Source of the DNA: Promethearchaeota archaeon
Lineage (GTDB): Archaea; Asgardarchaeota; Lokiarchaeia; Sigyniarchaeales; SOKP01
Assembly (NCBI GenBank): GCA_016926735.1
Contig: JAFGOA010000238.1
Span: forward strand, 1-31,983
Length of the DNA: 31,983 bases
Reading direction: 5' to 3'
The notes under the pieces were generated by a model. It worked only from the letters and a program-made list of their open reading frames with translations. It was not told where the DNA came from and searched no databases. Every line of letters starts with the position of its first letter. Position 1 is the stretch's first letter. Shown one piece after another: positions 5,660 to 28,424 of the stretch. Position numbers and translations under genes: made by a program.

Positions 5660-6056
5660 TATATCATTCTGCTTTTTTTCTTAAAAATCACATTTTACAA
5701 ATATCTGATATAGTAAAAATGAAATATGTATTATTATATTTATTTTAAAAATTTAGTATTTATTTTGAAAATTTATATACATTCGAGATCTAATTTAGTT
5801 TAAAGAACCACAACCATCAATTTATTTCTGGTAATTATCCTTTAAATCGGAATTAAGACCAATTGAATGCTAAGATTCTTCCATCAAGATTGAAATCAAT
5901 AATAAAGGTGAATTAATCTCAGTTTAATGTTGGAATGGCTTGGAGAAAAAGAGATAAGAAAAAATGATTTTATAAAAATATATAATACATCAAATGAATT
6001 ATATGTTATAGATTTCTTTTATATGGATCTTATTTTCCAATTCAATTTTAATAAAC

Positions 6057-8354
6057 TTGGGTAATATTATTATGACTTTATTAAATAAGAATGATAAATT
6101 CGTGTTTTTAGTTGGTGCGGGATGCTCGATGGATCCCCCTAGTCGATTACCTTCAGCTTTAGAGTTTGTACGCGAGATAGTGACTTTTTGTGCTCCTCCT
6201 GAAGAGTTTGAGACAATAATGAACCTTAATAGCTTAAAGTATGAGGCAATCGTAGAAATTGTAGAGAAAAGAATTGATAGAGATCTTATATTCTTGGATT
6301 ACTTGGAAACGAAAAAACAGCCAAACATCATTCATTTTTTCTTAGCAAATAATATCCTAAATAATAACAATGTGATAACTACTAATTTTGATTATTTGAT
6401 TGAAATAGCCTTGATTGAACTCCTCCCCAAAGGAGAAGAGCATGTAATAAGTCCCATAATAACTCAAGAACAATACTTAAACTTCCAAAAAGATGAAAAG
6501 ATCAATAATGTTAAAGATGCACATTTGTTTAAAATACATGGGTCAAAAAAAAATATAATCACTGGACAGGACACTTCTAGCTCTCTCGTGACCACCTTGT
6601 CAGCATTAGGAAAAAATAAAGAAGAAGGTAAAACATTTTCCATTGAGGCTTATAAGAAAGCTGCTTTGGAAAAAATAATTAATCAAAGAAATCTCATAGT
6701 ATTAGGATACTCCGGAAATGACGATTTTGACATTGCTCCGTTCATTAAAGAAGTAAAGACTTACAATAAAATTATTTGGATAGACCACGATAGATATAGG
6801 AACGATAAGGATAAAATTGAGATTGAACCTATTAGCTCAACAGTTAATAATAGTCCAAATGAGAAAATATCGAAGCAGGAACAATTCCTTAGAGAAATTT
6901 GCTCCTTACATGGCATTGAGATTATTAATGTTAAAGCAAATACTACATGGTATGTATCGGAGGTATTGTGGCCATCTTTATTGGAATCAACTCCTAAATT
7001 AGTCATTGAAAACGAAGATAATGCTGATGATCAAGACAACGCAAATATTAGTAGTTTTAGAGCTTATATGGAATCAATCTCCTCTTTTAACGAAATCGAT
7101 CAACTTACAAAACATCACTTTGCAATTGATGTCTATGACAGCGTAGGAGATTGGAAAAACGCTTTACATGTATCCAAAAAGGGATTAGAACTTGCGAGAG
7201 CAGAAAATAATGAAAAACAGATAGCAGAATTTATGATTCGGTTTGGTTATGAGCTAATAAACGATTCAAAATTAGAAGAAGCAATGAAAATGTTTTTAGA
7301 TGCTAAAATTAAATTTGAAAGGCTCAATGACTCCGAAGGTGTTGTTACTTCTTTATGTTCTTTGGGAAACATAGCTTTCTCCTTGTCTAATTATGAAGAA
7401 GCGAATAGGATATTCGACCAGGCTTATAACATGCGTGAGAGTATTAATAATCTTGAGGACTTAACTAATTTGTTGATTAATTTGGGTAAAACTCAACTTT
7501 TTTTGGGAAAATCCGAGTTAGCTTTATCAAAATATCGAGAAGCTTTGGACCTGGTGAATAGAACGGGAAATTTAAATACTAAAGCGTCTATTCTCAAGAA
7601 TATTGGCATTATCTATGAGGAAATTAAGGATTACAAAGATTCAATGCAATATCTTAAAGAATCATTTCAGATTCTAAAAATATTAGGAGATTCTAGAGGT
7701 TTAGTTGAATTATATCACATAATAGGAACACTCTGTTTGAATATGGAAGATTTTGATGGAACTCTTAACAATTATCTTGATGGAATAGCTTTGGCAATCA
7801 AGATAGGTCATGTGGATATGCAAGCCCAATTAGCAATCGAACTTGCAAAATACTACGACTCAATAGATGATGAAGATACTGCTACCCAATACTTTCAAGC
7901 TGCAATGGATCGATTTGATCAGGTTGGAAATATTGAGATTAAATTGTCCATTATAGGTGAAGTTGCGCTATCGTGTTATAACAAGGAAGCTTACGACGTT
8001 GCATTGGATTATTTTAATATGTGTTTAACAATGGCTCGTGAAGTTGATGATCTAATAAAAATAGTAACATATTTACATTGGATTGCTATGACTCATTCTA
8101 ATCTCACAGAAAACGAAAAGGCTTATAATATTTACTCTGAAATTGTAAGACTTCTTGAGAATACTAAGGATCTCACTCAAAAAGCGTATTTTTTACGACA
8201 AAAAGGAATAGCATGTTATAATGCCTCGAAAAATATTAATGAATCCATTAACCTACTCGAGCAATCTCTTTCTTTATATCAACAACTAAACTTAAAAGAC
8301 GCTGTAGAAGAATTGCGAGAGGACCTCAAGAATATAAAATCCGATTTAAATTAA
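6057..8354 (+). CDS. SIR2-family (SIR2_2-like) NAD-binding domain fused to a C-terminal TPR array
   Basis: N-terminal FLVGAGCS, ITTNFD, KIHGS and LGYSGND sirtuin motifs. The C-terminal half has repeated TPR-like helices (e.g. SLCSLGNIAFSLSNYEEA, LLINLGKTQLFLGKSELA, ILKNIGIIYEEIKDYKDS). Start is TTG at 6057 or ATG at 6072. Confidence 0.85.
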   Translation: MGNIIMTLLNKNDKFVFLVGAGCSMDPPSRLPSALEFVREIVTFCAPPEEFETIMNLNSLKYEAIVEIVEKRIDRDLIFLDYLETKKQPNIIHFFLANNILNNNNVITTNFDYLIEIALIELLPKGEEHVISPIITQEQYLNFQKDEKINNVKDAHLFKIHGSKKNIITGQDTSSSLVTTLSALGKNKEEGKTFSIEAYKKAALEKIINQRNLIVLGYSGNDDFDIAPFIKEVKTYNKIIWIDHDRYRNDKDKIEIEPISSTVNNSPNEKISKQEQFLREICSLHGIEIINVKANTTWYVSEVLWPSLLESTPKLVIENEDNADDQDNANISSFRAYMESISSFNEIDQLTKHHFAIDVYDSVGDWKNALHVSKKGLELARAENNEKQIAEFMIRFGYELINDSKLEEAMKMFLDAKIKFERLNDSEGVVTSLCSLGNIAFSLSNYEEANRIFDQAYNMRESINNLEDLTNLLINLGKTQLFLGKSELALSKYREALDLVNRTGNLNTKASILKNIGIIYEEIKDYKDSMQYLKESFQILKILGDSRGLVELYHIIGTLCLNMEDFDGTLNNYLDGIALAIKIGHVDMQAQLAIELAKYYDSIDDEDTATQYFQAAMDRFDQVGNIEIKLSIIGEVALSCYNKEAYDVALDYFNMCLTMAREVDDLIKIVTYLHWIAMTHSNLTENEKAYNIYSEIVRLLENTKDLTQKAYFLRQKGIACYNASKNINESINLLEQSLSLYQQLNLKDAVEELREDLKNIKSDLN

Positions 8355-8659
8355 TTTCCTTTTCACATGTCCTTCTTATAATCAATTCATAATATACTAA
8401 CCTTTAAAAATAATCATATTCTTGAAAATTTCTTATACTTAAGTTAAATTTTTTAAATAAACACAAAATCCACTAAAAAAAATACATTTCTTCTGCAAAA
8501 AAAGAATTAGTAGAAATATTAAAAATTTAAGAAAATAAAAATTTTGACTAATTTTTTTTTTGTTTTTATAAGTAGTACAAAAATATTTTATCTTATCAAA
8601 AATAATAAAAAAAATTGGACTAAATAACTGATAAATTTCTTTTTAAACATTTTTCAATT

Positions 8660-9316
8660 ATGACTTTATTTGATAATTTATATCCAATTAATAAAAAACA
8701 ACTTAAGGAAGTTAGTCTTGTTCTTGCAGATGCATTTTCTGAAGATGAAATGTTCAAAATTATGAAATTTAAAATTGAAGAAATTGCATTGATATATGAA
8801 ATTCTAACTAGGATATGTCTAAGATATGGTAATGTATATTTAACATCCAAAAATCTTGAAGGAATAATTGGATTTACTCCAGGTAATAAACATGCAACTT
8901 TATGGAGAACCATCCGTAGTGGTGCTATATTTCCAGGATTGAAATTAATGAAGCTTTTTGGAAGAGAAATGAGGAAAATTATGCAAGTAATTGAAAAAGA
9001 GAGAAAAGAACTTAATATTGGTCCATATATCTATTTTAGTGTAATTGGAGTATCTCAAAAAAATCAAGGAGAAGGATATGGAGGTAAATTAATAAAAGCA
9101 CTTATAGAAAAAGCAGATATTGAAGGGAAACCAATTTATCTTGAAACTCAAAATGAACCAAATGTAAAGATGTATGAAAAATTTGGATTTGAAATATTAA
9201 AGAAAATAGATATGAGTGCAATAGATTTTGATATTGATATTGAAAAATATGATTTTATGGAAGATATATCAAAATTGAATCCACATTTATGGTTAATGCT
9301 CCGAAAATGCAATTAA
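8660..9316 (+). CDS. GNAT-family N-acetyltransferase
   Basis: Acetyl-CoA motif IGVSQKNQGEGYGGKL, YLETQNEPNVKMYEKFGF, and C-terminal LWLMLR. Confidence 0.9.
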   Translation: MTLFDNLYPINKKQLKEVSLVLADAFSEDEMFKIMKFKIEEIALIYEILTRICLRYGNVYLTSKNLEGIIGFTPGNKHATLWRTIRSGAIFPGLKLMKLFGREMRKIMQVIEKERKELNIGPYIYFSVIGVSQKNQGEGYGGKLIKALIEKADIEGKPIYLETQNEPNVKMYEKFGFEILKKIDMSAIDFDIDIEKYDFMEDISKLNPHLWLMLRKCN

Positions 9317-9421
9317 TGCTTTATTGGTGATTTGAATTGTGATCTTTTAGAAATTATCCAAATTTCTTTATAAAAAGAATTCTCAGAATTTCATTTTTTG
9401 GTTTTCACAAATAACACAAAA
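9293..9421 (+). repeat. Dispersed intergenic repeat, copy A (includes the last codons of GNAT)
   Basis: ttgtgatcttttagaaattatccaaatttctttataaaaagaattc...ggttttcacaaataacacaaaa aligns with the other copies and end-to-end with 12740-12870. Confidence 0.8.
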
Positions 9422-9534
9422 TTTTCATTGTTGTATTGCTTAGAAAAATATATTTAATAAAATCTAATCCTTCGAATAAAAATATTTTTAACTTCTAAAA
9501 TCAATTCTATTAATGACCATAAGTAAAATCATAC

Positions 9535-10914
9535 GTGAAATTAATGATTAAAAAGAAAAAGCAAATCCTAATAATGTCGTTCATTTTTATCATGAGCTTA
9601 TTAATTATAATATCATCACTATTTTTTTTGTTTCCATCTCAAAAAGAAGCTTTAATTAAAGGTTTTTCTTCTGTATGGGATACTAGAAAACCAGGTATAA
9701 GCAATGAAAATCAAATAAGTTTACCTTTGGAATCAAGCGGAACATACAATTTTACAGTAGATTGGGGTGATGGAACTCTTGAGGAGATCACAAGCTGGGA
9801 TCAACCAGAAACAATTCATACATATACTTCAGGAGGGATATATACTATCAGCATTAATGGAATTATTGTTGGTTGGAACTTTAATAATGGAGGTGATAGG
9901 CTTAAATTAAAAGAGATAAATAAATGGGGTTCCTTACGTTTAGGAAATTCAGGAGGATATTTCTATGGATGCGAAAACCTTATTATTAATACTCATGATA
10001 ATTTAAATTTAACTGGTACTATAAATCTCAATAATGCTTTTAAAGCATGCCTTAGCATTGAAAATATAGAAGGGATGAATAATTGGGATTTATCATGTGT
10101 AATAAATATGAATTCTATATTTTATGATGCTTCTTCCTTCAATCAAAATCTTGGTAATTGGAACGTGTCAAACGTAAAAAAGATGAGTCATATGTTCTGG
10201 GGTGCTTCTTCCTTCAACCAAGATATTTGTAAATGGAACGTCTCAAAGGTGACTAATATGAGCTATATGTTCTGGGGTGCTTCTTCTTTCAACCAAGATA
10301 TTGGTAATTGGGATGTATCGAATGTGATAGATATGAGCAATATGTTTTCATTTGCAAATAGTTTTAATCAAGATATAAATCTTTGGAACGTCTCAAAGGT
10401 AACTAATATGAGCTATATGTTCCTCCAAGCAACTACTTTTAATCAAAGTATTTGCAATTGGAATGTCTCAAGCGTGATGGATATGAAGTCTATGTTTTGG
10501 AGTGCCTATTCATTCAACCAGGATATTGGTAATTGGGATGTATCGAATGTGATAGACATGAGCAATATGTTTAGAATCTCTTCTTTCAACCAAGATATTG
10601 GTAATTGGGATGTATCATGTGTAAAAGATATGAATAGTATGTTCAGTTTGACAATTAATTTCAATCAAAATCTTGGTAACTGGAACGTGTCAAATGTAAA
10701 AGATATGAGTCATATGTTCAATGGTGTGACGTTATCAACAGTAAATTATGATTCTCTGCTAATTGGATGGGCGAATTTTTCGCCATTACAATATAATGTT
10801 AACTTCGACGCAGGTGGATCAACATTTACTTCTAGTGGAGCTGCTGAGAATGCAAGGAACGATATCCTCGTGAATATGTTTAATTGGATTATTTCAGATG
10901 GTGGGGGCGTTTAA
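9535..10914 (+). CDS. BspA-family (DUF285) leucine-rich-repeat surface protein with N-terminal anchor and PKD-like domain
   Basis: N-terminal TM/signal, YNFTVDWGDG...HTYTSGGIYTI PKD-like motif, and about 9 repeats of ~25 aa of the type FNQDIGNWDVSNVIDMSNMF. GTG start; ATG at 9544 is also possible. Confidence 0.9.
   Translation: MKLMIKKKKQILIMSFIFIMSLLIIISSLFFLFPSQKEALIKGFSSVWDTRKPGISNENQISLPLESSGTYNFTVDWGDGTLEEITSWDQPETIHTYTSGGIYTISINGIIVGWNFNNGGDRLKLKEINKWGSLRLGNSGGYFYGCENLIINTHDNLNLTGTINLNNAFKACLSIENIEGMNNWDLSCVINMNSIFYDASSFNQNLGNWNVSNVKKMSHMFWGASSFNQDICKWNVSKVTNMSYMFWGASSFNQDIGNWDVSNVIDMSNMFSFANSFNQDINLWNVSKVTNMSYMFLQATTFNQSICNWNVSSVMDMKSMFWSAYSFNQDIGNWDVSNVIDMSNMFRISSFNQDIGNWDVSCVKDMNSMFSLTINFNQNLGNWNVSNVKDMSHMFNGVTLSTVNYDSLLIGWANFSPLQYNVNFDAGGSTFTSSGAAENARNDILVNMFNWIISDGGGV
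10075..10720 (+). repeat. Intragenic ~75-bp tandem repeats encoding the DUF285 units
   Basis: Near-identical DNA blocks at 10138-10197/10660-10719, 10288-10347/10513-10572 and 10234-10272/10384-10422. Confidence 0.9.
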
Positions 10915-10971
10915 ATCTATTAATTATAATCATAAAAACTTATGAAAAATTGAAAAAATATTTCCTTTTAG

Positions 10972-11155
10972 TCATTTTTTGGAGATTCACATAATTTGTG
11001 AGTTTCCAAAAATAATCCAAAATTCTTTTTAAATATATTGATATTACGATAATCTATTATTTAAAATAATCCATAATTTTTCAAAAATAAGCTAAAAACA
11101 TTTATAAAGAGAATTTTTAAAATTTCATTTTTTGGTTTTCATAAATAATACAAAA
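10972..11155 (+). repeat. Dispersed intergenic repeat, copy B
   Basis: Palindrome tttttggagattcaca-taatt-tgtgagtttccaaaaa (10976-11012), then ~20-bp units ending in ttttcataaataatacaaaa. Confidence 0.85.
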
Positions 11156-11205
11156 CTATGATAAAAAAAAAAGAACTTTAGAAAGTTCTACATAATTACA
11201 TAAGT

Positions 11206-12366
11206 TTAATACATTCCAGGTCTTGCTAAGTTAGTTGACCAAGCACTTAATATTCCATCTTCATTTTCAGCAAGTACTCGATACCACCAACTTACACCTT
11301 GAGTTGCTAAATAGTCATCAAAATAGAAATCTATAAAAGTGGCATTAACTGAACCAATTCTGTTGTAAAGCAGATCCTCTATTTGCTCACTTGAGCGTTC
11401 AATATGATATAGCACCGCCCCTTGGACTCCTTCCCAGGAGACCCTGATCTTATCTGGATAATCCATGCTAGATACTTGAATTGGAACGGAATCTAATAAT
11501 CTGTATCCAAGTTTAACCTCTGAAAATTCACTTACAATTGTATTATCATATAAGGAAAGAATTCGCCCTTTGTAATAATATTTCTTTCCATTTTCAGCAG
11601 AAATATCGTCATATCTACTTATTGAATCAGTTTCATGAATTAAAGTATATTGACCATCAATTTCTGTAGCACGGTAAAATTGATATACATAATGATCCCA
11701 AAAGACTATATCTCCTAAAATAATAGTAACATAATCTGGAGAATTTGTAGTGCAATAAGTTAAAGTTGGAGTTGGTATTGACCTATATCCTGAATCTATA
11801 GAAGTTTCGAATTCACCATTGGTCGTAATAACATTTACTTTATAATAGTATTTTATTCCTGGAAATCTAAGTCCTATATCTTGTATGTCGGAATAATAAT
11901 TATTTGTAGTTTCCCCAATGTTTGTATAGACACCATTTTCATCTTCAGCTCTATAAATCTCATAAACATTTGCATCAGGAAAATTAGACCACTCTAAATC
12001 AATTGATGAAAGACTAGTTCCATCTGAAGCTTTTAATTGGGTAACAGGAAAGCTATCTATTACTCCAACATAGTATTGTGCTATAAGTAAAGCATCTACT
12101 ATAGTAACAGATCCATCTCCATTAACATCTGCTAAGGCAGGATTAAATCCTGCTGGATCTAATCCAACATAGTATTGACCTGTTAAAAGGGCATCTATAA
12201 TATTTACAGCACCATCTTCATTTGTATCACCAATAATTATAGCAGAACTCTTTAAATTATTGGAAGTAGTTGTAGAATCGGTAAATTTTATAAAAATAGA
12301 TGGGAAAAATACCAATAAGGCCAAGAATATACTAAATCTAAATTTTTTTAATTTTTGTTTATTCAT
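11206..12366 (-). CDS. Secreted protein with a dockerin (duplicated EF-hand-like) domain and fibronectin type III-like repeats
   Basis: Signal-like N-terminus, GDTNEDGAVNIIDALL...ADVNGDGSVTIVDALL dockerin duplicate, and three Fn3-like units (W...YEIYRA...Y.D...YYYKV). Confidence 0.8.
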   Translation of the reverse strand: MNKQKLKKFRFSIFLALLVFFPSIFIKFTDSTTTSNNLKSSAIIIGDTNEDGAVNIIDALLTGQYYVGLDPAGFNPALADVNGDGSVTIVDALLIAQYYVGVIDSFPVTQLKASDGTSLSSIDLEWSNFPDANVYEIYRAEDENGVYTNIGETTNNYYSDIQDIGLRFPGIKYYYKVNVITTNGEFETSIDSGYRSIPTPTLTYCTTNSPDYVTIILGDIVFWDHYVYQFYRATEIDGQYTLIHETDSISRYDDISAENGKKYYYKGRILSLYDNTIVSEFSEVKLGYRLLDSVPIQVSSMDYPDKIRVSWEGVQGAVLYHIERSSEQIEDLLYNRIGSVNATFIDFYFDDYLATQGVSWWYRVLAENEDGILSAWSTNLARPGMY

Positions 12367-12440
12367 ATAAATTTCATCCTTAAACCATTTTTATTGATTT
12401 TCTAAATTTAAATAGAATATTTTAATCAATTACATAAAAA

Positions 12441-12579
12441 AATCCTATTTATTTAAAAAGGATTGAGGTGTACTTTTTGAACTATAATTGAGCTACCAAT
12501 CCTTGAGGGGGAATAAATTCCTACTCCCTAATATATAATTAGGCAATACGGAATGGTTCTTCACCCTATATTATTATAG
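12441..12579. other. Multi-stem structured non-coding element (candidate cis-regulatory RNA or ssDNA structure)
   Basis: Nested complementary segments: aatcct/aggatt, ggtg/cacc, accaatcc/ggaatggt, gagggggaat/attcctactc, cctaat/attagg and ctata/tatag. It is more GC-rich than its flanks. No family recognised. Confidence 0.4.
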
Positions 12580-12739
12580 AGAAAATAAAATAAAAAATTA
12601 TTAGAGAGTATTGGTTTAATGAATTAATTTTGCATTCATCCCTACCCTAAAAGACATGGTATTCTACTATAAAAACAGTAAAGAGAAAATAAAATAAAGA
12701 AAAAAGAATAAGGATTTAGAAAAATACTTGATTACATAA

Positions 12740-12870
12740 TTAATGCTCCGGAAATGCAATTAATAATGGATTATTGATGATCTAAATTGTGATCTTTCAA
12801 AAATAATCCAATTTTCTTTAAAAAGACAATTTTTAAAATTCTATTGTTTAGTTTTCAAAATAAAACAAAA
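12740..12870 (+). repeat. Dispersed intergenic repeat, copy C, carrying a duplicate of the GNAT 3' end
   Basis: ttaatgctccggaaatgcaattaat matches 9293-9317 with one mismatch. Similarity continues to gttttcaaaataaaacaaaa. Confidence 0.8.
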
Positions 12871-12967
12871 TTAAGTTTATTATAAAAAATACCCAAAACA
12901 ATTTGAATTTTTTATACTATTTTTTGGAAAGAAAAATAATAAAAATATCAAGTCTATATATTATTCT

Positions 12968-14248
12968 ATGACAAAAAAAGAAGAATCAGCTTCTTTAGAA
13001 CAACAAAAGGGTAAGGAAGAAAAAGGTCGAATTTCACGTTTTTTGGCCTTCTATGTTATTGCTTATGTTATTGTAGATGGTTTTCTAACTGCTATGCCTA
13101 TTCATATAAATGATAACTTATTATTCGAGTTCGGACTCAATGAATCTCAATATTATGTAATTTTGAGTATCGCCTCCCTGGGTTTGATTGCTGTGTTTGC
13201 TCTTCAATATTTTGCAGATATTATTGGTCGAAAATGGGCAATTATAATTTCATTTATAGGAATGGCTGTTAGTGGATCTTTAATGGGATTTGCTTTAACT
13301 GCTGAGCAATTTACACTTTTCTTCTTCTTTAGTTTCTTCTTTGTATCTTCAGATGTTTGGGTTATATATGTAAGTGAGGAAGTAGCCCCCCAAAATCGTG
13401 GGCGGGCTATTTTTTGGATTACTATATTCACTGTAGCAGCTACATTTATAGGACCAATAGCACGTAGAATCGCAATGCAAGAACCAGTAGATATAGCTTC
13501 TGCAGCAACATGGAGATATCTCCCAATGATATTCATAGTTACAATTCCAATCGCTTTATTGGGATTTGGTATTAAAGAAAGTTCAGCTTATATAGAAAAT
13601 AAGAAAAACAGACCAATTGAATCAATTCAAGATAAAATTAAAAAACTCGGAAAAGTCTATAAAGGTGAATATAAAGTAAGGTTTTTAGTCTTTATCCTAT
13701 CAGGTATTTATCTTGGATTAGGATTTACATCAATTTCACTTTTTGATCCCTTTCTACATTCGTATTTTGGAAATACTGACCAAGTCACTACTTCGTGGAT
13801 AATAATGTCCATTTTTGCCATAGTAGCATTTTTTCTCATTGGTCCAATTACTGATAAATTTGGACGAAAATCCACTAGTTATGCGATTTGCATTATTGAA
13901 CTAATAAGTCTAATCCTATTAGTCCTAAGTGTGGAATTCTTAACTGTTATCAGTTTACCTTTAATTGCAGTACTGAGCGGTCTTACTTTTGCTGCATATT
14001 ATTCATTTTTAAGCTTGAATCGAGTTCATTGTGTTGAACTATTTCCAACAGAGATTAGAGGTACTGCACTCGCATGGCGTTCTTTTGCTTTCGCCATAGC
14101 AGTTACTGGAGGATCTGCTCTATCCTCATTATTAACAAATTTTATATCAGTGGGTACAGTATTTATTATTTACAGCTGCTTAATTCCATTTGTAATGTTT
14201 GCTATAAAGAAATATCTTCCAGAAACGAAAAATATCTCTATACGTTAA
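12968..14248 (+). CDS. Major facilitator superfamily transporter
   Basis: About 12 TM segments, motif-A copies ADIIGRK and TDKFGRK, plus SEEVAPQNRG and ELFPTEIRG. Confidence 0.92.
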   Translation: MTKKEESASLEQQKGKEEKGRISRFLAFYVIAYVIVDGFLTAMPIHINDNLLFEFGLNESQYYVILSIASLGLIAVFALQYFADIIGRKWAIIISFIGMAVSGSLMGFALTAEQFTLFFFFSFFFVSSDVWVIYVSEEVAPQNRGRAIFWITIFTVAATFIGPIARRIAMQEPVDIASAATWRYLPMIFIVTIPIALLGFGIKESSAYIENKKNRPIESIQDKIKKLGKVYKGEYKVRFLVFILSGIYLGLGFTSISLFDPFLHSYFGNTDQVTTSWIIMSIFAIVAFFLIGPITDKFGRKSTSYAICIIELISLILLVLSVEFLTVISLPLIAVLSGLTFAAYYSFLSLNRVHCVELFPTEIRGTALAWRSFAFAIAVTGGSALSSLLTNFISVGTVFIIYSCLIPFVMFAIKKYLPETKNISIR

Positions 14249-14418
14249 TTATATTATAGCGTTTAATAATTTCTAAAATCTTTTTTTTTTATTTTTTTAA
14301 AAAATCCAATTTTTTTTTCAATTCAATAAATTATTTGAGTATTTCTTATAATAATATATATCTAAAAATTGAATTTTTATGTTTAAATAATATCTCATCT
14401 TAGTGTAATTTAAAAAAA

Positions 14419-14625
14419 AATATCAAATCATTATATTTATCATTTCATTCTTCGAAACCTCAATTATTGTGGTTTTCCAAAAATCAACCAAAATCCTTTA
14501 TAAATAAATTAGTATTTTTTGACTCATTTTTCAAAATTATCCATAATTTTTCAGAAATAATCCAAAAACCTTTTTAAAGACAATTTTTAAAATTTCATGT
14601 TCTATTTTTCATAAATAATACAAAA
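14419..14625 (+). repeat. Dispersed intergenic repeat, copy D
   Basis: aatatcaaatcatt...tttatcatttcattcttcgaaacctcaattattgtggttttccaaaaatcaaccaaaatcctttataaa...ttttcataaataatacaaaa. Confidence 0.85.
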
Positions 14626-14708: not shown

Positions 14709-17700
14709 TTACCAGTAGATTTTCTTTAATTTCTCATGATATTCATTAAGAGATGTAACTGAGACCTTTCTTCCCCTCATTTTCTCTATTGAATTAATCA
14801 ATGCTTCAGCCAGTTCTATATTTATGATTACAGGTATGTTAAAATCAACAGCTAACCTTCTGATCTTATACTCATCTTCTATAATTGTTCTAAATTTCTC
14901 TTTACCTTTAGAGGGTCTTGGAATATTGATAACTAAATCAATCATTGCATTTTGAAGACAACCTATAATATTAGGTTCTTGTCCAAATTCATGAATTTTA
15001 TACAGTCGAACAGTATAAATTCCATTCTCTTTAAGAATAGATGCTGTATCTTGAGTTGCAAATATTTTAAATCCCAATTTCTTTAATTTTATTGCTAGGG
15101 GTATAACTCGTTTTTTTAATTCTTCTCCACCAACAGTTATAAGAACATTTCCACCATTTATTGGTATATTTTGTTCTGTAGCTTCTAAAGCTTTAATTAA
15201 AGCATCTGATAAATCTTTACCAATGCAAGCCACTTCACCTGTACTATTCATTTCTACACCTAAGATTGGATCTGCATTATCTAAACGCATAAAAGAAAAC
15301 ATTGGAGCTTTCACTACGACAAAGTCACCATAAGGTAATTTTAAAAGGTTTTCAGGTATTTTATGTCCCATAATTACTTCTGCTGTAAGTCTCATTAAAT
15401 TAATACCTCGTGTTTTAGAGACATATGGCATACTCCTACTGGAGCGAAGATTACATTCAATTACATAGACGATTTCATCCTTTAATAAGTATTGTATGTT
15501 AAAAGGTCCTTTAATTTTTAATGCTAAAGCGATTTCTTTTGTATATTTTTCAATTTTTTGAATTACTTCATTTGAAATCGTTTGTGGAGGAATAGACATA
15601 GTTGCATCCCCACTATGAACTCCAGCATTTTCAATATGTTCAACAACTGCTCCAATGAATACATTAATCCCATCACAGATCCCATCACATTCTACTTCTC
15701 GTGAATTTATAAAAAATTTTGTTATTACTACAGGATATTCCTTAGAGACCGTTGCTGCAAGATCAAGTGTATCTATTAATGTTTTTTCATCATAAGATAC
15801 CCTCATAGCAGCTCCGCTTAAAACATAAGAAGGTCTTACAAGAACTGGATAACCTACTTTTCTTGTAAATTCCAAAGCTTCTTCCTTATTTATTAACATA
15901 CTCCAATCAGGTTGTTTTATATTCATTTGATCTAGTAGATTACTAAACTTTGCTCTATCTTCTGCCATATCAACGCGTGAACCATGAGTACCTATTATAT
16001 TAATTCTAGCCTTGCGATAAAATTCATTATATTTAGAAAATTTAGCGGCAAGATTTTGAGCAATTTGTCCACCTACAGAAACAACAATTCCTTCAGCTTT
16101 TTCAAGCTCACATATATCTAATACCCTTTCTCCAGAAAGCTCCTCAAAGTAAAGTTTGTCACATATATCATAATCCGTACTACATGTTTCGGGATTGTAA
16201 TTAATCATTATAGCTTGATTAATTCCTTGTTTTTGAAGTCCCCATAAACAATTGACACTTCCCCAATCAAATTCACAACTACTTCCAATTCTATAAGTTC
16301 CACATCCTAACACAATAATTTTTCTAAGTTTTTCTTTTTCTTCTTGTCCATAATTAATATCGTGTTTATTTCCCCAATAAGTTAAATATAAGTATTGCCT
16401 TTTAGGGATGCATTGTCCTGCTAGAGTATCAATTTGCTTTACATATGGTATAATTTTATATCTTTTTCGTAGTCTTCTTATAGTTGGTGTATCAACACCT
16501 ATAATTTTTGCTATTTGTCCATCTGAAAATCCATATCTTTTTGCTTCCTCTAAGCAATTTCCTTTTTCTTCATCAGATGATTTAAGAAAATCCAATCCAC
16601 ATAGTTTTTGTTCAATATCTATTATATTTTTCAATTTATATAGAAACCATTTATCTATTCTAGATCTCTCATAAATTTTTTCAATAGAAATACCTCGTTT
16701 TATTGCTTCACCAATTCTTAAAAATCTTAAATCAGTAGGATTTCTTAATTCATATAATAATTCATTTATATCTTCTATAGGTGTTAGGTTATTTACAACA
16801 AATCCTTTTAATCCAATGTCTAACATTCGAAGAGCTTTTTGACATACTTCTTCAAAACATCTACCTATACTCATACATTCCCCAACACCCTTCATTTGGG
16901 GCCCTATGCGACGATCTACCCTCTCAAATTTATTTAAATCCCATCGAGGATATTTTAAAACCATATAATCAGTAGCAGGCTCAAAATTTGCAGTTGTTTT
17001 AAGTGTAATTTGATTTAGTAATTCCGGCAAATGATATCCAATCGCAATCTTAGCTGCTATATAAGCTAGAGGATAACCAGTAGCTTTTGATGCTAATGCA
17101 GAAGATCTTGATAATCTTGCGTTTATTTCAATAGCTCTATGATTTTTACTAAAAGGATCTAATGCCCATTGTATGTTACATTCACCAACTACGCCCACCT
17201 TTTTAGTTGCTCGAATTGATGCTGATCGAAGTATTTGAAGCTCCTCATCTGTTAAAGTCTGAGCAGGAGCAACAACTATTGAATCTCCTGTGTGAATACC
17301 ACAAGGATCCACATTTTCCATACTACAATTTATGAAACAGTTATCATCTGCATCTCTAAGTATTTCAAATTCAATTTCTTTCCATCCCCAAACACTTTCT
17401 TCTATTAAAATTTGGTTAATTCTTGATTGAGCTAATCCTCTTTTTGCTAGTCTTTCGAATTGATCCCAACTATTTATAAAAGCTGATCCTTTCCCACCTA
17501 AAACATAACCAACTCTAAGCATAATTGGAAACCCTATTTCCTTAGCTGCTTTTATAGCATCTTTATAATTATTAACAGCGTAACTTTTGCATACTGGGCA
17601 ATTAGCACTTTTCATTGCTTTAGCAAATAAATCTCTATCTTCTGTTATTTGAATTGCTTTAATTGGAGTACCTAAAACTCTAACAGAATACTTTTCTAAA

Positions 17701-18020
17701 ATCCCAGATTCATAAAGCTCAACACCTACGTTTAAACCTGTTTGACCACCAAAGGCTAAACAAATTCCGTCAGGTTTCTCTTTCTTGATAATCTCCTCAA
17801 TATATTTAATTGTAATAGGTTCTAAGTAAACCTTATGAGCCATTTGAGGATCAGTCATAATTGTTGCAATATTTGGATTAACTAGAATTGTTTTTATACC
17901 CTCTTCATTAAGAGCCTTTAAAACTTGACTTCCACTATAATCAAATTCTCCAGCTTGTCCTATTCTTACAGCTCCAGAACCTATAATTAGTACTTTTTTT
18001 AATGATTCATCTAAAGGCAA
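14709..18020 (-). CDS. carB: Carbamoyl-phosphate synthase large subunit
   Basis: KKVLIIGSGAVRIGQAGEFDYSG, two ATP-grasp domains (GIHTGDS, GVHSGDA, EINARLSRSS, RPSYVLSG) and a C-terminal MGS-like domain. TTG start 4 bp after the carA stop. Confidence 0.97.
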   Translation of the reverse strand: MPLDESLKKVLIIGSGAVRIGQAGEFDYSGSQVLKALNEEGIKTILVNPNIATIMTDPQMAHKVYLEPITIKYIEEIIKKEKPDGICLAFGGQTGLNVGVELYESGILEKYSVRVLGTPIKAIQITEDRDLFAKAMKSANCPVCKSYAVNNYKDAIKAAKEIGFPIMLRVGYVLGGKGSAFINSWDQFERLAKRGLAQSRINQILIEESVWGWKEIEFEILRDADDNCFINCSMENVDPCGIHTGDSIVVAPAQTLTDEELQILRSASIRATKKVGVVGECNIQWALDPFSKNHRAIEINARLSRSSALASKATGYPLAYIAAKIAIGYHLPELLNQITLKTTANFEPATDYMVLKYPRWDLNKFERVDRRIGPQMKGVGECMSIGRCFEEVCQKALRMLDIGLKGFVVNNLTPIEDINELLYELRNPTDLRFLRIGEAIKRGISIEKIYERSRIDKWFLYKLKNIIDIEQKLCGLDFLKSSDEEKGNCLEEAKRYGFSDGQIAKIIGVDTPTIRRLRKRYKIIPYVKQIDTLAGQCIPKRQYLYLTYWGNKHDINYGQEEKEKLRKIIVLGCGTYRIGSSCEFDWGSVNCLWGLQKQGINQAIMINYNPETCSTDYDICDKLYFEELSGERVLDICELEKAEGIVVSVGGQIAQNLAAKFSKYNEFYRKARINIIGTHGSRVDMAEDRAKFSNLLDQMNIKQPDWSMLINKEEALEFTRKVGYPVLVRPSYVLSGAAMRVSYDEKTLIDTLDLAATVSKEYPVVITKFFINSREVECDGICDGINVFIGAVVEHIENAGVHSGDATMSIPPQTISNEVIQKIEKYTKEIALALKIKGPFNIQYLLKDEIVYVIECNLRSSRSMPYVSKTRGINLMRLTAEVIMGHKIPENLLKLPYGDFVVVKAPMFSFMRLDNADPILGVEMNSTGEVACIGKDLSDALIKALEATEQNIPINGGNVLITVGGEELKKRVIPLAIKLKKLGFKIFATQDTASILKENGIYTVRLYKIHEFGQEPNIIGCLQNAMIDLVINIPRPSKGKEKFRTIIEDEYKIRRLAVDFNIPVIINIELAEALINSIEKMRGRKVSVTSLNEYHEKLKKIYW

Positions 18021-18024
18021 TTAA

Positions 18025-19167
18025 TTATTCCTCCATAAATTTAATAAATTTACTAAATATTATATCCTTCAAATCTAATGATCCCGGAGATCCCTCTGGA
18101 TTAAAGGCTACAGAAAATATTGGTTTAGATTCATGGAAAAGTCCCTCATTTGTTTTATCATCTTTATCATAATATAATTCCTTAAAACCATTTTTTTCAA
18201 AATTTTTAATACAATATCCATGATTCTGAAAAGTAATATAACAGTAATTTGAGATTTTATCTACAGTTGTTCTTCCTCCTCTATGTTCAGAGACCATTTT
18301 ATAACACTCTCCCCCTGCAGCTAATCCAATTAACATATTTCCTAAACCAATCCCTAATGTAGGGATATTATTATCGATTAAATCTTTAACAAATTCGATT
18401 GTCTGTTTACATAAATAAGGATTTCCCGGACCATTTGTTAATATAACTCCATTGGGACATAATTGTGTTAAATTCTTATAAGAATATAAATTAGGAATTA
18501 ATATAATATCATATCCTTCATTTAACAAAATTCTTAAAATATTATTTTTTACTCCTAGATCTAATACTGCAATAGTTCCTTTTGGATTTGTTACTAAAAA
18601 TTTTTTAATTTTCTCTGTAGAAACGCTTTTTATTAAATCTTTATTTGAAGGATCCTTAATATTCTTTACTTCTTCTTTTAATTGTTCAATATTAGGTTTA
18701 TCTCCAATGTCAAATACCTGAAGTATCCCTAATTGGGTTCCTTTTTCTACTATCTTTTGTGTTAACATTCGAGTATCAATCCATTGAATACCTGGAATAT
18801 CTTCTTCAATAAGCCAATCTTCTAAGGTCATAACCATTTCATAATGACTAGGATTTTTACAATATTCGTTGATTATTATTCCCTTTAGTTTAATAGAATC
18901 TGATTCAAAATGTTTAGGTATTCCAAACTGATCTATATTTTTATCTGGAACACCATAATTACCAATCAAAGGATATGTAAAAACAAGTATTTGATCTTTA
19001 AATGTACTATCTGTAAGTACTTCAATATAACCTGATCCTGGAATTGTTGAAAAAGTTATTTCACCACATACTTTTTTGATAGCTCCTAATCCTATACCTT
19101 CGAAATACGTTCCATCTTGTAACATCAAAATGGCAGTTTTTTCCTTTTTATTAATCATGCTAAACAT
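18025..19167 (-). CDS. carA: Carbamoyl-phosphate synthase small subunit, glutaminase catalytic residues substituted
   Basis: LQDGTYFEG, TYPLIGNYGV, IPGIQWIDTRMLT, DLGVKNNILR, NGPGNP and QNHGY are present. It reads GIGLGNM instead of GICLGHQ and AFNPE instead of QF/YHPE. Confidence 0.93.
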   Translation of the reverse strand: MFSMINKKEKTAILMLQDGTYFEGIGLGAIKKVCGEITFSTIPGSGYIEVLTDSTFKDQILVFTYPLIGNYGVPDKNIDQFGIPKHFESDSIKLKGIIINEYCKNPSHYEMVMTLEDWLIEEDIPGIQWIDTRMLTQKIVEKGTQLGILQVFDIGDKPNIEQLKEEVKNIKDPSNKDLIKSVSTEKIKKFLVTNPKGTIAVLDLGVKNNILRILLNEGYDIILIPNLYSYKNLTQLCPNGVILTNGPGNPYLCKQTIEFVKDLIDNNIPTLGIGLGNMLIGLAAGGECYKMVSEHRGGRTTVDKISNYCYITFQNHGYCIKNFEKNGFKELYYDKDDKTNEGLFHESKPIFSVAFNPEGSPGSLDLKDIIFSKFIKFMEE

Positions 19168-20549: not shown

Positions 20550-23351
20550 TCACATTAAATCTGTTTCATTTGTAATCTCAACATTATTTGAATTAAAAAC
20601 AAATCTCTCATAGAATTCTTGAAAAAATAAGATTGGAAATGCCGTAAGTAAAATCATGAGCCACTCCATTAGTCCTAATGGATATGTTCTGATAACAATT
20701 TGCATGAAAGGTACATATATAGCTAAAAATAATAATATTAGTGCTATGATAATTGCTATTATTAATATTTTATTCTCTAGGGTTTTTTTTGAGAATATAG
20801 TGGTATTCTGGCTTACCGATAGACATTGAAATGTCTGAAATATAACTAAAGCAGCAAAAATTATTGTTCTTTGTCGCATTAAATCTGCATTTTTGATATT
20901 AATTGCTAGATTAAAATCTAAACTCCACATAAACAAAAAAATACAACCAAGAGCATTTAATACTCCAAATAACAAAATAAAAATGAGTATTTCTTTATTA
21001 AGTAATGGTTCTTTTGGATCTCTTGGTTTTCTATTCATTAAATCCTCCTCCGCAGGACTAACCCCTAAGGCTAATGCTGGAAATGTATCAGTTACTAAAT
21101 TTATATAGAGTAACTGAATTGCTAATATAGGAAGGAATATAGAGTTAAAAAAGATTAATCCTATCAAAACTAACGCCATTACGGTTAAAATTTCTCCTGC
21201 ATTGGCAGATAAAAGGTAATTTATAAATTTCTTAATGTTATCATAGATTTTTCTTCCTTCCCCAACAGCTTCTATTATATTCGCAAAATTATCATCGACT
21301 AAAATCATATCACTAGCTTGCTTTGCAACATCAGTTCCAGTTATTCCCATTGCAACTCCTATGTCTGCTCTCTTGAGAGCTGGGGCATCATTTACTCCAT
21401 CTCCCGTCATAATAACGACTTCATTATGTTTTTTCAATACATTAATAATACGTAATTTATGTGATGGATCTACTCTAGCAAAAATCTCAGTCTTCTTAAT
21501 TATTTGTTCTAGCTCTTCATCTGATATTGAATCGAGCTTTGCTCCACTAACTGGCATTGTTGAAGCTGACATTCCGATTTCTCTTCCAATTGCTTTAGCA
21601 GTTAGCATGTGATCTCCAGTAATCATTATAACCTGAATACCTGCTTTTTTTGCTTTTAATAATGCAGGTTTCGAGGATTCTCTAGGGGGATCAATCATTC
21701 CTATAAATCCTACGAATGTTAAATTATCTTCTACTAGTTCACTTTTTTTCTCTTCGAGCAAAATCTTCGATTCTTCAGAATTAATTTCTCTTGAAGAAAA
21801 GCCCAAAATTCGATATGCAAAATCGGTTGAAAATCTCTCACTGACTTTATTAATTTTATCTTTTATTTCTGAAGTTAATGGCTTTTTTTGCCCAGCTTCA
21901 AGGTAGAAATCACATAGATCTAACATTATATCTAAGGCTCCTTTTACCATTATACAATACTCTCCTGTTTTTTTATTTTTTGAAATGATACTCATTCGTT
22001 TCCGGTTGCTGTCAAAAGGAAATAAATACTCAATTTTCCATTTCCTTTTAATATTTTCAACAGTTTGAGCTTTTTCTGCTAATATCAACAGAGCAATTTC
22101 AGTTGGATCTCCAAACACTTTATAAGGTTCTCCCTCAGTTTGAAATTCAATTGAAGCTTCATTAGCTAAAGCTCCAATCTCTATTAATGATTCTAATTCT
22201 AAATCATAATCAGATTCAACTTGTTTAGAAGTTTTAGCTTTCATAATTTGACCAAGATTTGTGAATCCCGTTCCAGAAATATTATACTGATTATTGAATG
22301 TCCAAATTAAAGTCACAGTCATTTCGTTTTTTGTAAGAGTTCCAGTTTTATCTGTGCAAATAATAGTACTTGCCCCTAGAACTTCGACAGCAGGGAGCTT
22401 TCGAATAAGAGCTTTTTGTTTTGCCATTCTAGTAACTCCAATTGCTAATGAAAGGGTCATAACTACGGGTAATCCCTCTGGTACAGCAGCCACTGAAAGA
22501 CCAATAGCAAAAATAAACAACTCTTTAAAATCTTCTAATCCAACAAATAAAATTTGTACTATAAATATTATTACCGCTATAATAATTATAAAGAATGTTA
22601 ACTGTTTAGCTAAAATTTTTAATTTTTTTTGAATAGGAGTATCTTCAGTTTTAATCCCCACTAAGGATGATGCAATTTTTCCGAGTTCCGTTCTTAAACC
22701 AGTAGAAGTGACTATTCCTCTTCCTGAACCACTAGAAATTGTAGTACCTTTATATATCATATTTTTTCTTTCAGCTAAAGGTGTTTTTGAGGGGATTTTT
22801 TTTATATCTTTTCGAATAGATAAAGATTCTCCAGTTAATATTGCCTCACTCACATTGATTTCATAACTTTTAATCAAGCGAATATCTGCAGGTATAAGAT
22901 TACCAGCCTCTAATATAACTATATCGCCAGGAACCAAGAATTCTGATTTCAACTTAAGTTTTTTGTTATTCCGAAGTACAATAACTTCACTTTTTGATAA
23001 AGACTTTAAAGCTTCAATTGCTTTTTCTGCGGAATATTCTTGATAAAAACCCAAACCTGCATTTAAAATTATAACGATATTTATTGCTATTATTTCAATA
23101 ATTACATTCTCATCATTTTCAATGATTCCAATAACTGCAGTAATAATTCCCGCAATAATTAAAATAAGCACCAATAGATTTTTGAATTGATTAAGAAATA
23201 TTTTATAAGGATTTGCTTTTTTACCTGTTTCTAACTCATTTTTTCCATATTTTTGTAAGCGTTTTTCAACTTCTTCAGAACTTAATCCATTCTGACTTGT
23301 TTCTAGAATATTGTATAAATCTTCTATTGATTTGTTATATGCTTCAATCAT
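20550..23351 (-). CDS. Cation-transporting P-type ATPase, P2A (Ca2+, SERCA/PMR1-like)
   Basis: TGES, VPEGLP, phosphorylation site DKTGT, KGA, DPPR, MITGD, TGDGVNDAPALK, M5 YLLSANAGE and M6 INLVTDTFPALALG. Confidence 0.93.
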   Translation of the reverse strand: MIEAYNKSIEDLYNILETSQNGLSSEEVEKRLQKYGKNELETGKKANPYKIFLNQFKNLLVLILIIAGIITAVIGIIENDENVIIEIIAINIVIILNAGLGFYQEYSAEKAIEALKSLSKSEVIVLRNNKKLKLKSEFLVPGDIVILEAGNLIPADIRLIKSYEINVSEAILTGESLSIRKDIKKIPSKTPLAERKNMIYKGTTISSGSGRGIVTSTGLRTELGKIASSLVGIKTEDTPIQKKLKILAKQLTFFIIIIAVIIFIVQILFVGLEDFKELFIFAIGLSVAAVPEGLPVVMTLSLAIGVTRMAKQKALIRKLPAVEVLGASTIICTDKTGTLTKNEMTVTLIWTFNNQYNISGTGFTNLGQIMKAKTSKQVESDYDLELESLIEIGALANEASIEFQTEGEPYKVFGDPTEIALLILAEKAQTVENIKRKWKIEYLFPFDSNRKRMSIISKNKKTGEYCIMVKGALDIMLDLCDFYLEAGQKKPLTSEIKDKINKVSERFSTDFAYRILGFSSREINSEESKILLEEKKSELVEDNLTFVGFIGMIDPPRESSKPALLKAKKAGIQVIMITGDHMLTAKAIGREIGMSASTMPVSGAKLDSISDEELEQIIKKTEIFARVDPSHKLRIINVLKKHNEVVIMTGDGVNDAPALKRADIGVAMGITGTDVAKQASDMILVDDNFANIIEAVGEGRKIYDNIKKFINYLLSANAGEILTVMALVLIGLIFFNSIFLPILAIQLLYINLVTDTFPALALGVSPAEEDLMNRKPRDPKEPLLNKEILIFILLFGVLNALGCIFLFMWSLDFNLAINIKNADLMRQRTIIFAALVIFQTFQCLSVSQNTTIFSKKTLENKILIIAIIIALILLFLAIYVPFMQIVIRTYPLGLMEWLMILLTAFPILFFQEFYERFVFNSNNVEITNETDLM

Positions 23352-27193: not shown

Positions 27194-28000
27194 TTACACT
27201 TTCTGAGCTATAAGGAAAATTCGATTGAATAATAAATCGCCCACACCGTTTTCTAAACATTGATTCTTAAAAGAATTTTTGACAATTTCTTTAAAATCGT
27301 TAATATATCTGGGAGTAAGTTTAATTTTATAAAAATCTTGATTAAGATATCCTATTATTGCTCCAGATGAAAAAATAGAATAAATTTCTTCTGGTGTTTT
27401 CGTCATTTTGAATTCTATTATTTCTGATAAAATAATTTTAAATCCATATTTCCGAAATAATTTTGAATAATCTTCTGCAGTATCAAGAAAAAACCATGGG
27501 TTTTTAAAATGACGAAAAGTGAGTTTGGTTTTATCATTTTTTTTTATTTCATTAATAGCGTTAATAAACATGGGACAATAATTTTTCGTTGCTGGGGCCT
27601 GTATTCCAACTTTACCTTCTTTTTTAAGAGCTCTATAAAAATTCTCAATTGGAATATATGGAGGATTAAACCATTGAAATGCCGAACTTATAAAGATGAT
27701 ATTAAATTCAGAATTAAATGTGATATCTTTAGCAGATTTTACTTGAAAATCAATATTAAAACCACTATATTCTTTTTTAGCTTCATTTATCATTTCTATG
27801 GAAGGATCTATCCCTATAACCTTTCCATTAACTAATTCTCTAATTTCTTTGGTAATATGTCCAGGACCACATCCCACATCCAAAACATCTGATTCTAATT
27901 TTATTCCTAATAGTTTTATTAACCTTTCAGAATTAGTTTTTTGAACAATAGCCTTTTGTTTATAATCTTGAGAAATTTTAGAAAAATCATATTTTTTCAT
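27194..28000 (-). CDS. Class I SAM-dependent methyltransferase
   Basis: Motif I VLDVGCGPG, GIDPSIEMI, SSAFQW and LKKEG. Start set at MKKYDF (28000) to avoid overlap with hisI. Confidence 0.88.
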   Translation of the reverse strand: MKKYDFSKISQDYKQKAIVQKTNSERLIKLLGIKLESDVLDVGCGPGHITKEIRELVNGKVIGIDPSIEMINEAKKEYSGFNIDFQVKSAKDITFNSEFNIIFISSAFQWFNPPYIPIENFYRALKKEGKVGIQAPATKNYCPMFINAINEIKKNDKTKLTFRHFKNPWFFLDTAEDYSKLFRKYGFKIILSEIIEFKMTKTPEEIYSIFSSGAIIGYLNQDFYKIKLTPRYINDFKEIVKNSFKNQCLENGVGDLLFNRIFLIAQKV

Positions 28001-28013
28001 AATTATCAATAGC

Positions 28014-28424
28014 TCATTTGTATACATCTTTCGGATCAAAAATTTTCGTACCAATATCTTTGAATTTTCCATCTTCTAATTTGTTGAAAAAACAACTATA
28101 ATATCCTTTATGGCAAGCTGCTCCAATTTGTTTTACAATAATGAGAAGGCTATCCTTATCACAGTCTGTAATAATATCCAAAACTTCTTCTAAATATCCA
28201 CTTGATTCTCCTTTTTTCCATATTTTATTTCTTGAACGTGAGAAAAAGTGTACATAACCTGTTTCCATTGTTTTTCTTACAGCTTCTTTATTTGCAAAAG
28301 CTAAAATAAGAATCTCATTGGTTTCTGAATCTTGAGTTATTACGGGTATTAATCCACCTTCAATTTTAGAAAAATCGAGTAATTTGATATAATTATCAAT
28401 ATCATCTGAAGAGAATTGCTTCAT
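28014..28424 (-). CDS. hisI: Phosphoribosyl-AMP cyclohydrolase
   Basis: GLIPVITQD, FFSRSRNKIWKKGESSG, DCDKD and ACHKGYYSCF. Confidence 0.96.
   Translation of the reverse strand: MKQFSSDDIDNYIKLLDFSKIEGGLIPVITQDSETNEILILAFANKEAVRKTMETGYVHFFSRSRNKIWKKGESSGYLEEVLDIITDCDKDSLLIIVKQIGAACHKGYYSCFFNKLEDGKFKDIGTKIFDPKDVYK

Follow-up and report, generated by a model that had tools for sequence, protein, structure and literature searches.

A clade of Asgard archaeal CarA proteins without the glutaminase Cys and His, encoded beside a co-diverged CarB: a putative ammonia-dependent second carbamoyl phosphate synthetase

The stretch of DNA analyzed here, referred to as the window, is a contig of 31,983 bp from a Promethearchaeota archaeon (JAFGOA010000238.1). 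It encodes both subunits of a carbamoyl phosphate synthetase (CPS), the small subunit CarA and the large subunit CarB, in adjacent genes on the minus strand. The CarA has Gly and Asn in place of the catalytic Cys and His of the glutaminase site, and proteins of this kind are referred to as G-type CarA. The same two residues were kept throughout a clade of Asgard CarA proteins. The G-type CarA and its associated CarB are read as a co-evolved, glutaminase-dead pair that would make carbamoyl phosphate from free ammonia (NH3) beside a glutamine-dependent CPS. The probability of this reading was put at about 0.6.

The G-type carA gene (18025-19167, minus strand) is an open reading frame (ORF) of 380 amino acids with no internal stop. 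Its relatives are 377 amino acids long and begin at Met4 of the window protein, so the true start is probably at 19158 (Met4, 377 amino acids). On the minus strand, the codons aca tta ggg att GGT tta gga aat atg encode TLGIGLGNM, in which Gly274 comes from the GGT at 18348-18346. This residue aligned with the Cys of GICLGHQ in E. coli CarA and with Ser294 of human CPS1 when compared with solved structures using HMMER. The E. coli nucleophile is numbered Cys269 in PDB titles, and entries for a C269S mutant and a Cys269 adduct exist. The second altered motif reads gcc ttt AAT cca gag (AFNPE). Its AAT codon at 18102-18100 encodes Asn356, which HMMER aligned with the His of HPE in E. coli CarA. 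That His is His353. By codon read and alignment, the ATG codon at 18334-18336 encodes Met278 at the Gln position of GICLG(H/N)Q. The GCC codon at 18106-18108 encodes Ala354 at the Gln position of Q(F/Y)HPE. The sole residue left of the Cys-His-Glu triad is Glu358 (GAG, 18094-18096). The motifs NGPG (residues 245-248) and QNHGY (residues 314-318) are present.

The first-pass annotation had reported GIGLGNM and AFNPE in an otherwise intact carA with NGPG and QNHGY, and both altered codons and the rest of the ORF were read directly as it described. It had also claimed that the site was dismantled at several positions. This holds for the triad residues replaced by Gly274 and Asn356 and for the drifted Gln positions 278 and 354. 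Within the nucleophile motif, the changes of Cys to Gly and of Gln to Met are special to the G-type protein. The Asn of GIGLGNM, counted among the changes, does not represent a loss: the same Asn stands in the GICLGNQ of the canonical sister clade (17/17 sequences). The 4 bp between carA and carB were found as reported: the carA stop TAA is followed by bases 18021-18024 (minus strand) and the TTG start of carB, an operon-like junction.

The protein has the two-domain architecture of CarA. The N-terminal CPSase small-chain domain (PF00988, 4e-39) covers residues 14-148 (18724-19128, minus strand), and the majority of the contacts predicted to CarB fall within it. The class I glutamine amidotransferase domain (PF00117, 2e-32), in which the catalytic site is dismantled, covers residues 201-376 (18040-18567, minus strand). 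On TIGR01368 the protein scored 335.1 bits, above the curated cut-off of 307.35, while a canonical paralogue from a related genome (locus L001, described below) scored 429.8. The gene adjoins carB, and the protein is predicted to bind its product. The class I amidotransferase fold was found with a nucleophile elbow, G-I-G-L-G, that has no Cys.

The altered positions were tallied in the best 120 protein clusters (90% identity) together with the query. Gly at the Cys position and Asn at the His position occurred together in 104 of these 121 sequences, a count that includes the window's own two entries. Cys and His were found in 17. The Gly and Asn are therefore shared by 102 other clusters, down to 54% identity to the window protein. 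A comparison of 103 G-clade sequences with 137 canonical Asgard CarA sequences gave Gly at position 274 in 103/103 of the former and Cys in 99% of the latter. Position 356 was Asn in 103/103 and His in 137/137, respectively. Positions 278 and 354, each Gln in 99% of the canonical sequences, were variable in the G clade. Position 278 had M, N, V, I, F and others, the commonest at 31%, and position 354 was Ala in 73%. Gly317 was likewise fixed in the canonical clade and variable in the G clade, where it was present in 47%. At position 358, 86% of G-clade sequences had Glu and the others had Asp.

Other parts of the site were retained. The G clade keeps NGPG, Asn315, His316, Pro361, Gly362, Gly298 and mostly Glu358. 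Thirty CarA positions were conserved within each clade yet different between the clades. These include Cys274Gly, His356Asn, Ser55Thr, Lys299Arg, Gly294Glu, Asn334Asp and Ile335Lys. Lys299Arg adjoins the tunnel residue Gly298, and Arg299 is invariant in the G clade. The position of Ser55Thr aligns with Ser47 of E. coli CarA, which is taken here to be part of the glutamine site. Judged from these alignments, the change is a functional shift centered on the glutaminase site and not a general loss of constraint.

A phylogenetic tree of 106 sequences was built with IQ-TREE after the motif columns had been taken out. In this tree the G-type CarA proteins formed one clade (support 100, stem 0.35). 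Its sister was the canonical Asgard CarA (support 96, stem 0.12), and the two together had a support of 100. A FastTree tree of 250 sequences agreed on this placement. In pairwise comparisons, mean identity was 66% among G-clade sequences, 79% among canonical ones and 53% across the two groups. Seventy-seven of 390 columns were invariant over the 103 G-type sequences compared to 155 over the 137 canonical ones. Between the window and L001, the one other G-type locus available as DNA, dN/dS was 0.16 for carA and 0.07 for carB, values that are rough since dS was 1.6-2.1 and near saturation. The named relatives of both subunits came from Promethearchaeota, Lokiarchaeota, Hodarchaeota or Hermodarchaeota. 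These names, with a Gtr1/RagA-type GTPase encoded in the window, bore out the Asgard host that had been proposed from the sequence alone.

A single-base change would turn either canonical codon into the one found (TGT to GGT, CAT to AAT), as an artefact or a decaying pseudogene might show, and the chance of either is negligible given the 102 clusters, which derive from independent assemblies, the intact ORF, the dN/dS of about 0.16, the 77 invariant columns and the confident fold. The earlier argument against sequencing error was thus upheld, as Gly and Asn are clade-wide in the 102 other clusters. Comparison with Asgard CarA likewise showed the two residues to be kept under purifying selection.

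A CarA 56% identical to that of the window was found at locus L002 (DATKTW010000132.1), which is titled as a Nanopelagicaceae bacterium. It fell inside the canonical Asgard clade and the contig is probably mis-binned.

A genome scan returned 595 stretches, and the best 80 of these contained 81 CarA ORFs. Seventy-nine were canonical, one ended before the motifs and one was G-type. The G-type ORF was at L001, from a Promethearchaeota metagenome-assembled genome. This locus carries carA(Cys/His), carB, carA(Gly/Asn) and carB in tandem on one strand. The canonical carA lies at 5420-6556 and its carB at 6553-9870. The G-type carA lies at 10001-11134 and is followed by carB at 11139-14444, with the same 4-bp gap as in the window. 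The presence of a paralogue and this tandem arrangement were points absent from the first-pass annotation.

Beyond L001, co-location was judged from equal contig size among the matches listed for three queries: the canonical CarA of L001, the window CarB and the window CarA. G-type and canonical CarA were found on contigs of equal size at 49634 (L001), 14943, 18703, 21607, 97095, 45088 and 33156 nt. The CarA on the 21607-nt contig (P0004) was the closest relative of the window CarA from a named source among the matches listed (79% identity). A contig of 33389 nt had a G-type CarA and two CarBs. Contigs of 21291 and 81148 nt both had one CarB from each clade, and one of 16478 nt had a canonical CarA with a CarB of the G-associated clade. 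Parts of both systems were thus found on at least 11 contig sizes, L001 included, and, among the 31 G-type contigs no shorter than 14 kb, on 8 or more, within the limits of an approach that gave one chance size match among short contigs (1571 nt). The G-type pair is a paralogous second CPS: canonical carAB lies directly upstream of it at L001 and probably shares its contig in 10 further cases. With canonical carAB present in relatives, the organism would not have to rely on ammonia to make carbamoyl phosphate. Other forms of CPS duplication were seen at L014 (Bathyarchaeia), L065 (Bacteroidales) and L074 (Nanoarchaeota), each with two carB-like ORFs beside one intact carA.

The partner gene carB (14709-18020, minus strand) has a TTG start and encodes 1,103 amino acids. 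The protein begins MPLD, as do its relatives. It has all the domains of the CPS large subunit and scored 1379.9 bits on TIGR01369 (cut-off 1027). Residues R129, R169, E215, H243, N282, Q284, E298, N300, R302 and R305 were present in 100% of 43 G-associated CarBs. The same was true of C232, A251 and A313. These three align with Cys648, Ala667 and Ala729 of CPS1, described in the accessible part of PMC4655335 as the conserved gate of the ammonia tunnel. The G-associated CarB therefore has the full domain set together with its catalytic and gate residues.

Divergence of CarB was uneven along its length. Residues 1-560 (16341-18020, minus strand) comprise the carboxyphosphate and oligomerization domains, which face CarA and accept ammonia, and were the only part differentiated. 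Fifty positions separated G-associated from canonical Asgard CarB. Forty-five of these were in residues 1-560 (binomial p 4e-9), and the other five were in residues 596-668. None was in the allosteric (MGS-like) domain at about residues 951-1103 (14712-15170, minus strand; PF02142 at residues 972-1065). In this domain identity was 73% among G-associated CarBs and 72.7% between G-associated and canonical ones. A tree of residues 1-560 recovered the G-associated clade (0.97) and a tree of residues 561-1103 did not. Since the clade-specific sites and the clade signal are found there, the divergence is confined to the G-type CarA and the CarA-facing half of its CarB. By these sequence comparisons the N-terminal half of CarB has co-diverged with the G-type CarA, a point that the first-pass annotation did not raise.

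The C-terminal halves were unusually alike in two of five CarB pairs on the same contig (P0393/P0436 and P0399/P0440). Over residues 561-950 these pairs had 84-88% identity, compared to about 80% for pairs on different contigs. Such a pattern could point to gene conversion among tandem copies of carB, with the N-terminal half exempt.

The AlphaFold (AF2) model of the G-type CarA had a pLDDT of 92.6. Its TM score was 0.89 both to E. coli CarA (1jdb) and to the N-terminal moiety of CPS1 (5dou). Prediction of a complex between the G-type CarA and residues 1-560 of its CarB gave a score of 0.92, and the best control gave 0.00. A mark of 0.92 was met by 116/157 solved complexes and 2/215 mismatched pairs, counts that apply only roughly because our own alignments were used in the prediction. 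Contact agreement between runs was at least 96% and the partner pLDDT was at least 91. The predicted interface on CarA comprises residues 5-7, 22, 41-49, 64-74, 86, 100-110 and 129-140. The prediction may echo the solved E. coli complex rather than report binding. Clade-specific sites were enriched at the predicted interface when compared to all residues, in both CarB (p 0.005) and CarA (p 0.007). The enrichment in CarB persisted when the comparison was restricted to sites conserved in both clades (11/45 vs 34/327, p 0.011).

With both the nucleophile and the general base gone, the G-type CarA cannot, on established enzymology, hydrolyze glutamine by the class I mechanism. Because the synthetase is intact, an NH3-dependent CPS is the simplest reading. 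The G-type CarA has retained the CarA fold and is predicted still to dock on CarB. Its role would be that of a pseudo-enzyme subunit, either structural or activating, which would have evolved together with the N-terminal half of its CarB. CarB itself is a complete synthetase in which the two ATP sites and the ammonia gate are preserved. NH3 could reach the carboxyphosphate site by a vestigial, unblocked tunnel. It could also follow a path along the subunit interface as proposed for CPS1. For CPS1, PMC4655335 has ammonia coming from outside, and the route proposed there begins between Glu82 and His142 and then follows the contact surface of the two moieties. Glu49 and His108 of the G-type CarA align with these two residues, are conserved and lie in the predicted interface. 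Either route is open in principle because Glu49 and His108 are conserved and Gly298 is kept.

External ammonia has precedents as a substrate. PMC4655335 also reports that E. coli CPS with a blocked or perforated tunnel has normal activity on external ammonia. E. coli CarB alone is an ammonium-dependent CPS according to the sections of PMC8121099 consulted, in which a switch between CarAB and a lone CarB2 following the ammonium supply is also proposed for Bacteroides. The G-type pair adjoins canonical CarAB in related genomes, and it is therefore proposed as a second CPS for ammonium-rich conditions. There it would spare the cost of making glutamine and would not be the only CPS of the cell.

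Several points weigh against an NH3-using second CPS. The one observation pointing to NH3 as the substrate is the loss of the glutaminase. The affinity of E. coli CPS for ammonium is poor, and a useful NH3 enzyme would need adaptations. Only one G-type locus besides the window was seen at the DNA level, the other co-locations coming from equal contig size. No canonical carAB and no remnant of a second carA or carB was found by tblastn on the window's own 31,983-bp contig. The interface enrichment in CarA was lost among sites conserved in both clades (10/36 vs 20/115, p 0.13). Conserved pocket elements (NGPG, Asn315, His316, Ser/Thr55 and Glu358) leave room for a ligand-binding role.

The last of these points leads to the alternative that survives best, although it is unlikely. 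The G-type CarA would be a ligand-sensing or regulatory subunit whose pocket binds glutamine or another molecule without hydrolyzing it and tunes CarB. Here too, nitrogen would come from free NH3 or from NH3 passed on by another enzyme. Glutamine binding to Cys269 mutants of the E. coli enzyme still affects the large subunit. The conservation of NGPG, Asn315, His316 and Ser/Thr55, and the invariance of Asn356 and Arg299, suggest that the protein is more than a scaffold. The variability at the Gln positions 278 and 354 and at Gly317, however, argues against retention of the glutamine site, and the window and L001 have no neighboring gene in common that could supply or deliver NH3.

An improbable alternative, next in standing, is that the duplication gave separate isozymes for the arginine and the pyrimidine pathways, like those of Bacillus or fungi, and that loss of the glutaminase would be secondary. 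The two complete carAB operons in tandem at L001 would fit such a division. So would the precedent of bacteria with two CPSs, one for arginine and one for pyrimidines, given in the sections of PMC8121099 consulted. Against it, the allosteric domain has none of the 50 clade-specific sites, and in this domain the paralogues differ no more between clades than within them. No arg or pyr genes lie beside either locus (window and L001). The division would also leave unexplained a triad loss that is kept in 103/103 sequences.

It is considerably less probable, and speculative, that the pair runs in reverse or in part, for example making ATP from carbamoyl phosphate in the manner of carbamate kinase during fermentation of arginine or other amino acids. 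A partial reaction of CPS yields ATP from ADP and carbamoyl phosphate, and amino-acid fermentation occurs in cultured Asgard archaea. The two clades, however, have diverged in CarA and in the CarB half that forms carboxyphosphate, not in the half that phosphorylates carbamate. Purifying selection acts on the G-type CarA as well as on both halves of CarB, and a role as kinase alone would not call for this. Hydrolysis of glutamine or another amide through a relocated nucleophile is very improbable: clade-specific hydroxyl gains do exist in the G-type CarA (Ser45, Thr38, Thr301 and Ser352), but the general base is lost too and no class I amidotransferase is known to us to work in this way.

The window has a GC content of about 27%, and Rfam and tRNA scans of it gave no matches. 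The 313-aa protein encoded at 29665-30606 (minus strand) is a Gtr1/RagA and Arf-family small GTPase with no NCBIfam match. L001 encodes a Ras-family GTPase at 18185-18712 (plus strand), and both are eukaryote-signature proteins typical of Asgard archaea. A 765-aa protein at 6057-8354 (plus strand), in which TPR repeats come after a SIR2-like domain, gave only weak PADLOC matches to SIR2 and TPR and may be a defense or signaling protein. A 933-aa type II P-type ATPase is encoded at 20550-23351 (minus strand). It was nearest to PMR1/SERCA Ca2+-ATPase models, scoring 647 bits against a cut-off of 798. A DUF285-repeat protein at 9535-10914 (plus strand; 310 bits) adjoins a dockerin type I protein at 11206-12366 (minus strand), and both are probably surface or secreted proteins. 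A methyltransferase ORF (27194-28072, minus strand) and a PRA-CH (hisI-like) ORF (28014-28424, minus strand) overlap by 59 bases, and one of the two starts is probably mis-set.

In public records, G-type proteins (P0012, P0028 and P0035 among them) bear the name 'glutamine-hydrolyzing carbamoyl-phosphate synthase small subunit'. G-type proteins exceed the TIGR01368 cut-off by only about 20-28 bits, and the label is given because they just clear it. From the residues present, this annotation is probably wrong.

Loss of the Cys was also found outside the G clade. Among 129 other CarA representatives (P0122-P0271, at least 300 aligned residues), 28 were without the catalytic Cys and most of these were also without the His. 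The Cys state changed at least 17 times on the FastTree tree. Ten non-Asgard Cys-less representatives had best BLAST identities of 37-56% to named loci, too low for a taxonomic assignment. Dead CarA subunits may, on these alignments, be widespread in prokaryotes. A full-text literature search found no description of a Cys-less CarA in Asgard archaea or other prokaryotes. The consulted sections of PMC8121099 stated in 2021 that all known bacterial CPSs are glutamine-dependent and that the ammonium-dependent enzymes of prokaryotes are of two unrelated archaeal types only.

A broader reading is offered tentatively, at somewhat below even odds. The G-type proteins would belong to an unrecognized prokaryotic class of ammonia-specific CPS with pseudo-glutaminase small subunits, which would be widespread and mis-annotated as 'glutamine-hydrolyzing'. 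The Asgard pair would be an insulated member that allows a switch of nitrogen donor according to ammonium, and an independent two-subunit version of the CPS1 solution. Its origin by ancient duplication is part of this reading and is held just as tentatively. On the main reading, the G-type pair would provide a clear prokaryotic counterpart of CPS1 in which a dead glutaminase is kept as a conserved, co-evolving subunit. It is a natural experiment on why a pseudo-enzyme subunit persists, with the sister pair in the same genome as a control. It also bears on metabolic reconstructions of Asgard archaea, given the 'glutamine-hydrolyzing' label in public records.

Compared to the bacterial and archaeal CarA/CarB typified by E. 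coli carAB (1jdb), the G-type pair is similar in gene order, junction, domains, fold (TM 0.89) and predicted interface. Every catalytic and gate residue checked in E. coli-type CarB is also present in the G-associated CarB. It differs in that its CarA is without the triad Cys and His and two glutamine-site Gln residues. It is also a second copy beside a canonical pair, and the CarA-facing half of its CarB has diverged.

Animal CPS1 (5dou, 6uel) was the best PDB sequence match of the G-type CarA (4.7e-77 compared to 9e-52 for E. coli). CPS1 had been cited as a precedent for loss of the Cys, and Ser294 is at this position in the accessible part of PMC4655335. Convergence with CPS1 had also been proposed, and this stands in part. 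Both keep an inactive glutaminase domain, external ammonia is presumed for the G-type pair as well, and the origins are independent. The route taken was different. In CPS1 the Cys is Ser, the His and Glu are kept and Gln318 blocks the old tunnel, according to the same part of PMC4655335, whereas in the G-type CarA the two residues are Gly and Asn and the tunnel residue Gly298 is retained. CPS1 is also one fused polypeptide of about 1,500 residues that depends on N-acetylglutamate, while the G-type pair is encoded by separate ORFs of 380 and 1,103 amino acids. The G-type CarA does not descend from the animal CPS I/III lineage, as the sister group of its clade is the canonical Asgard CarA. Two of the 28 Cys-less representatives (P0131 and P0132) resemble animal CPS1, and on the FastTree tree they group with long fused proteins of eukaryotic type, well away from the Asgard clade. 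A special link between Asgard archaea and eukaryotes, suggested by the better match to CPS1, was not supported by this placement.

Two further comparisons are with prokaryotic enzymes that use ammonium. CarB2 of Bacteroides thetaiotaomicron is likewise a second CPS beside CarAB, and direct use of NH4+ when it is plentiful is proposed for it in the consulted sections of PMC8121099. It is without a small subunit, unlike the G-type pair, which has a full-length, conserved pseudo-glutaminase that has co-evolved with CarB. The carbamate-kinase-like CPS of Pyrococcus and the small CPS of Methanobrevibacter smithii are also archaeal and ammonia-dependent, as cited in PMC8121099 and PMC6022934. These enzymes have an amino-acid kinase fold or a half-size synthetase and neither has a CarA-like subunit, in contrast to the G-type pair with its complete synthetase and retained CarA.

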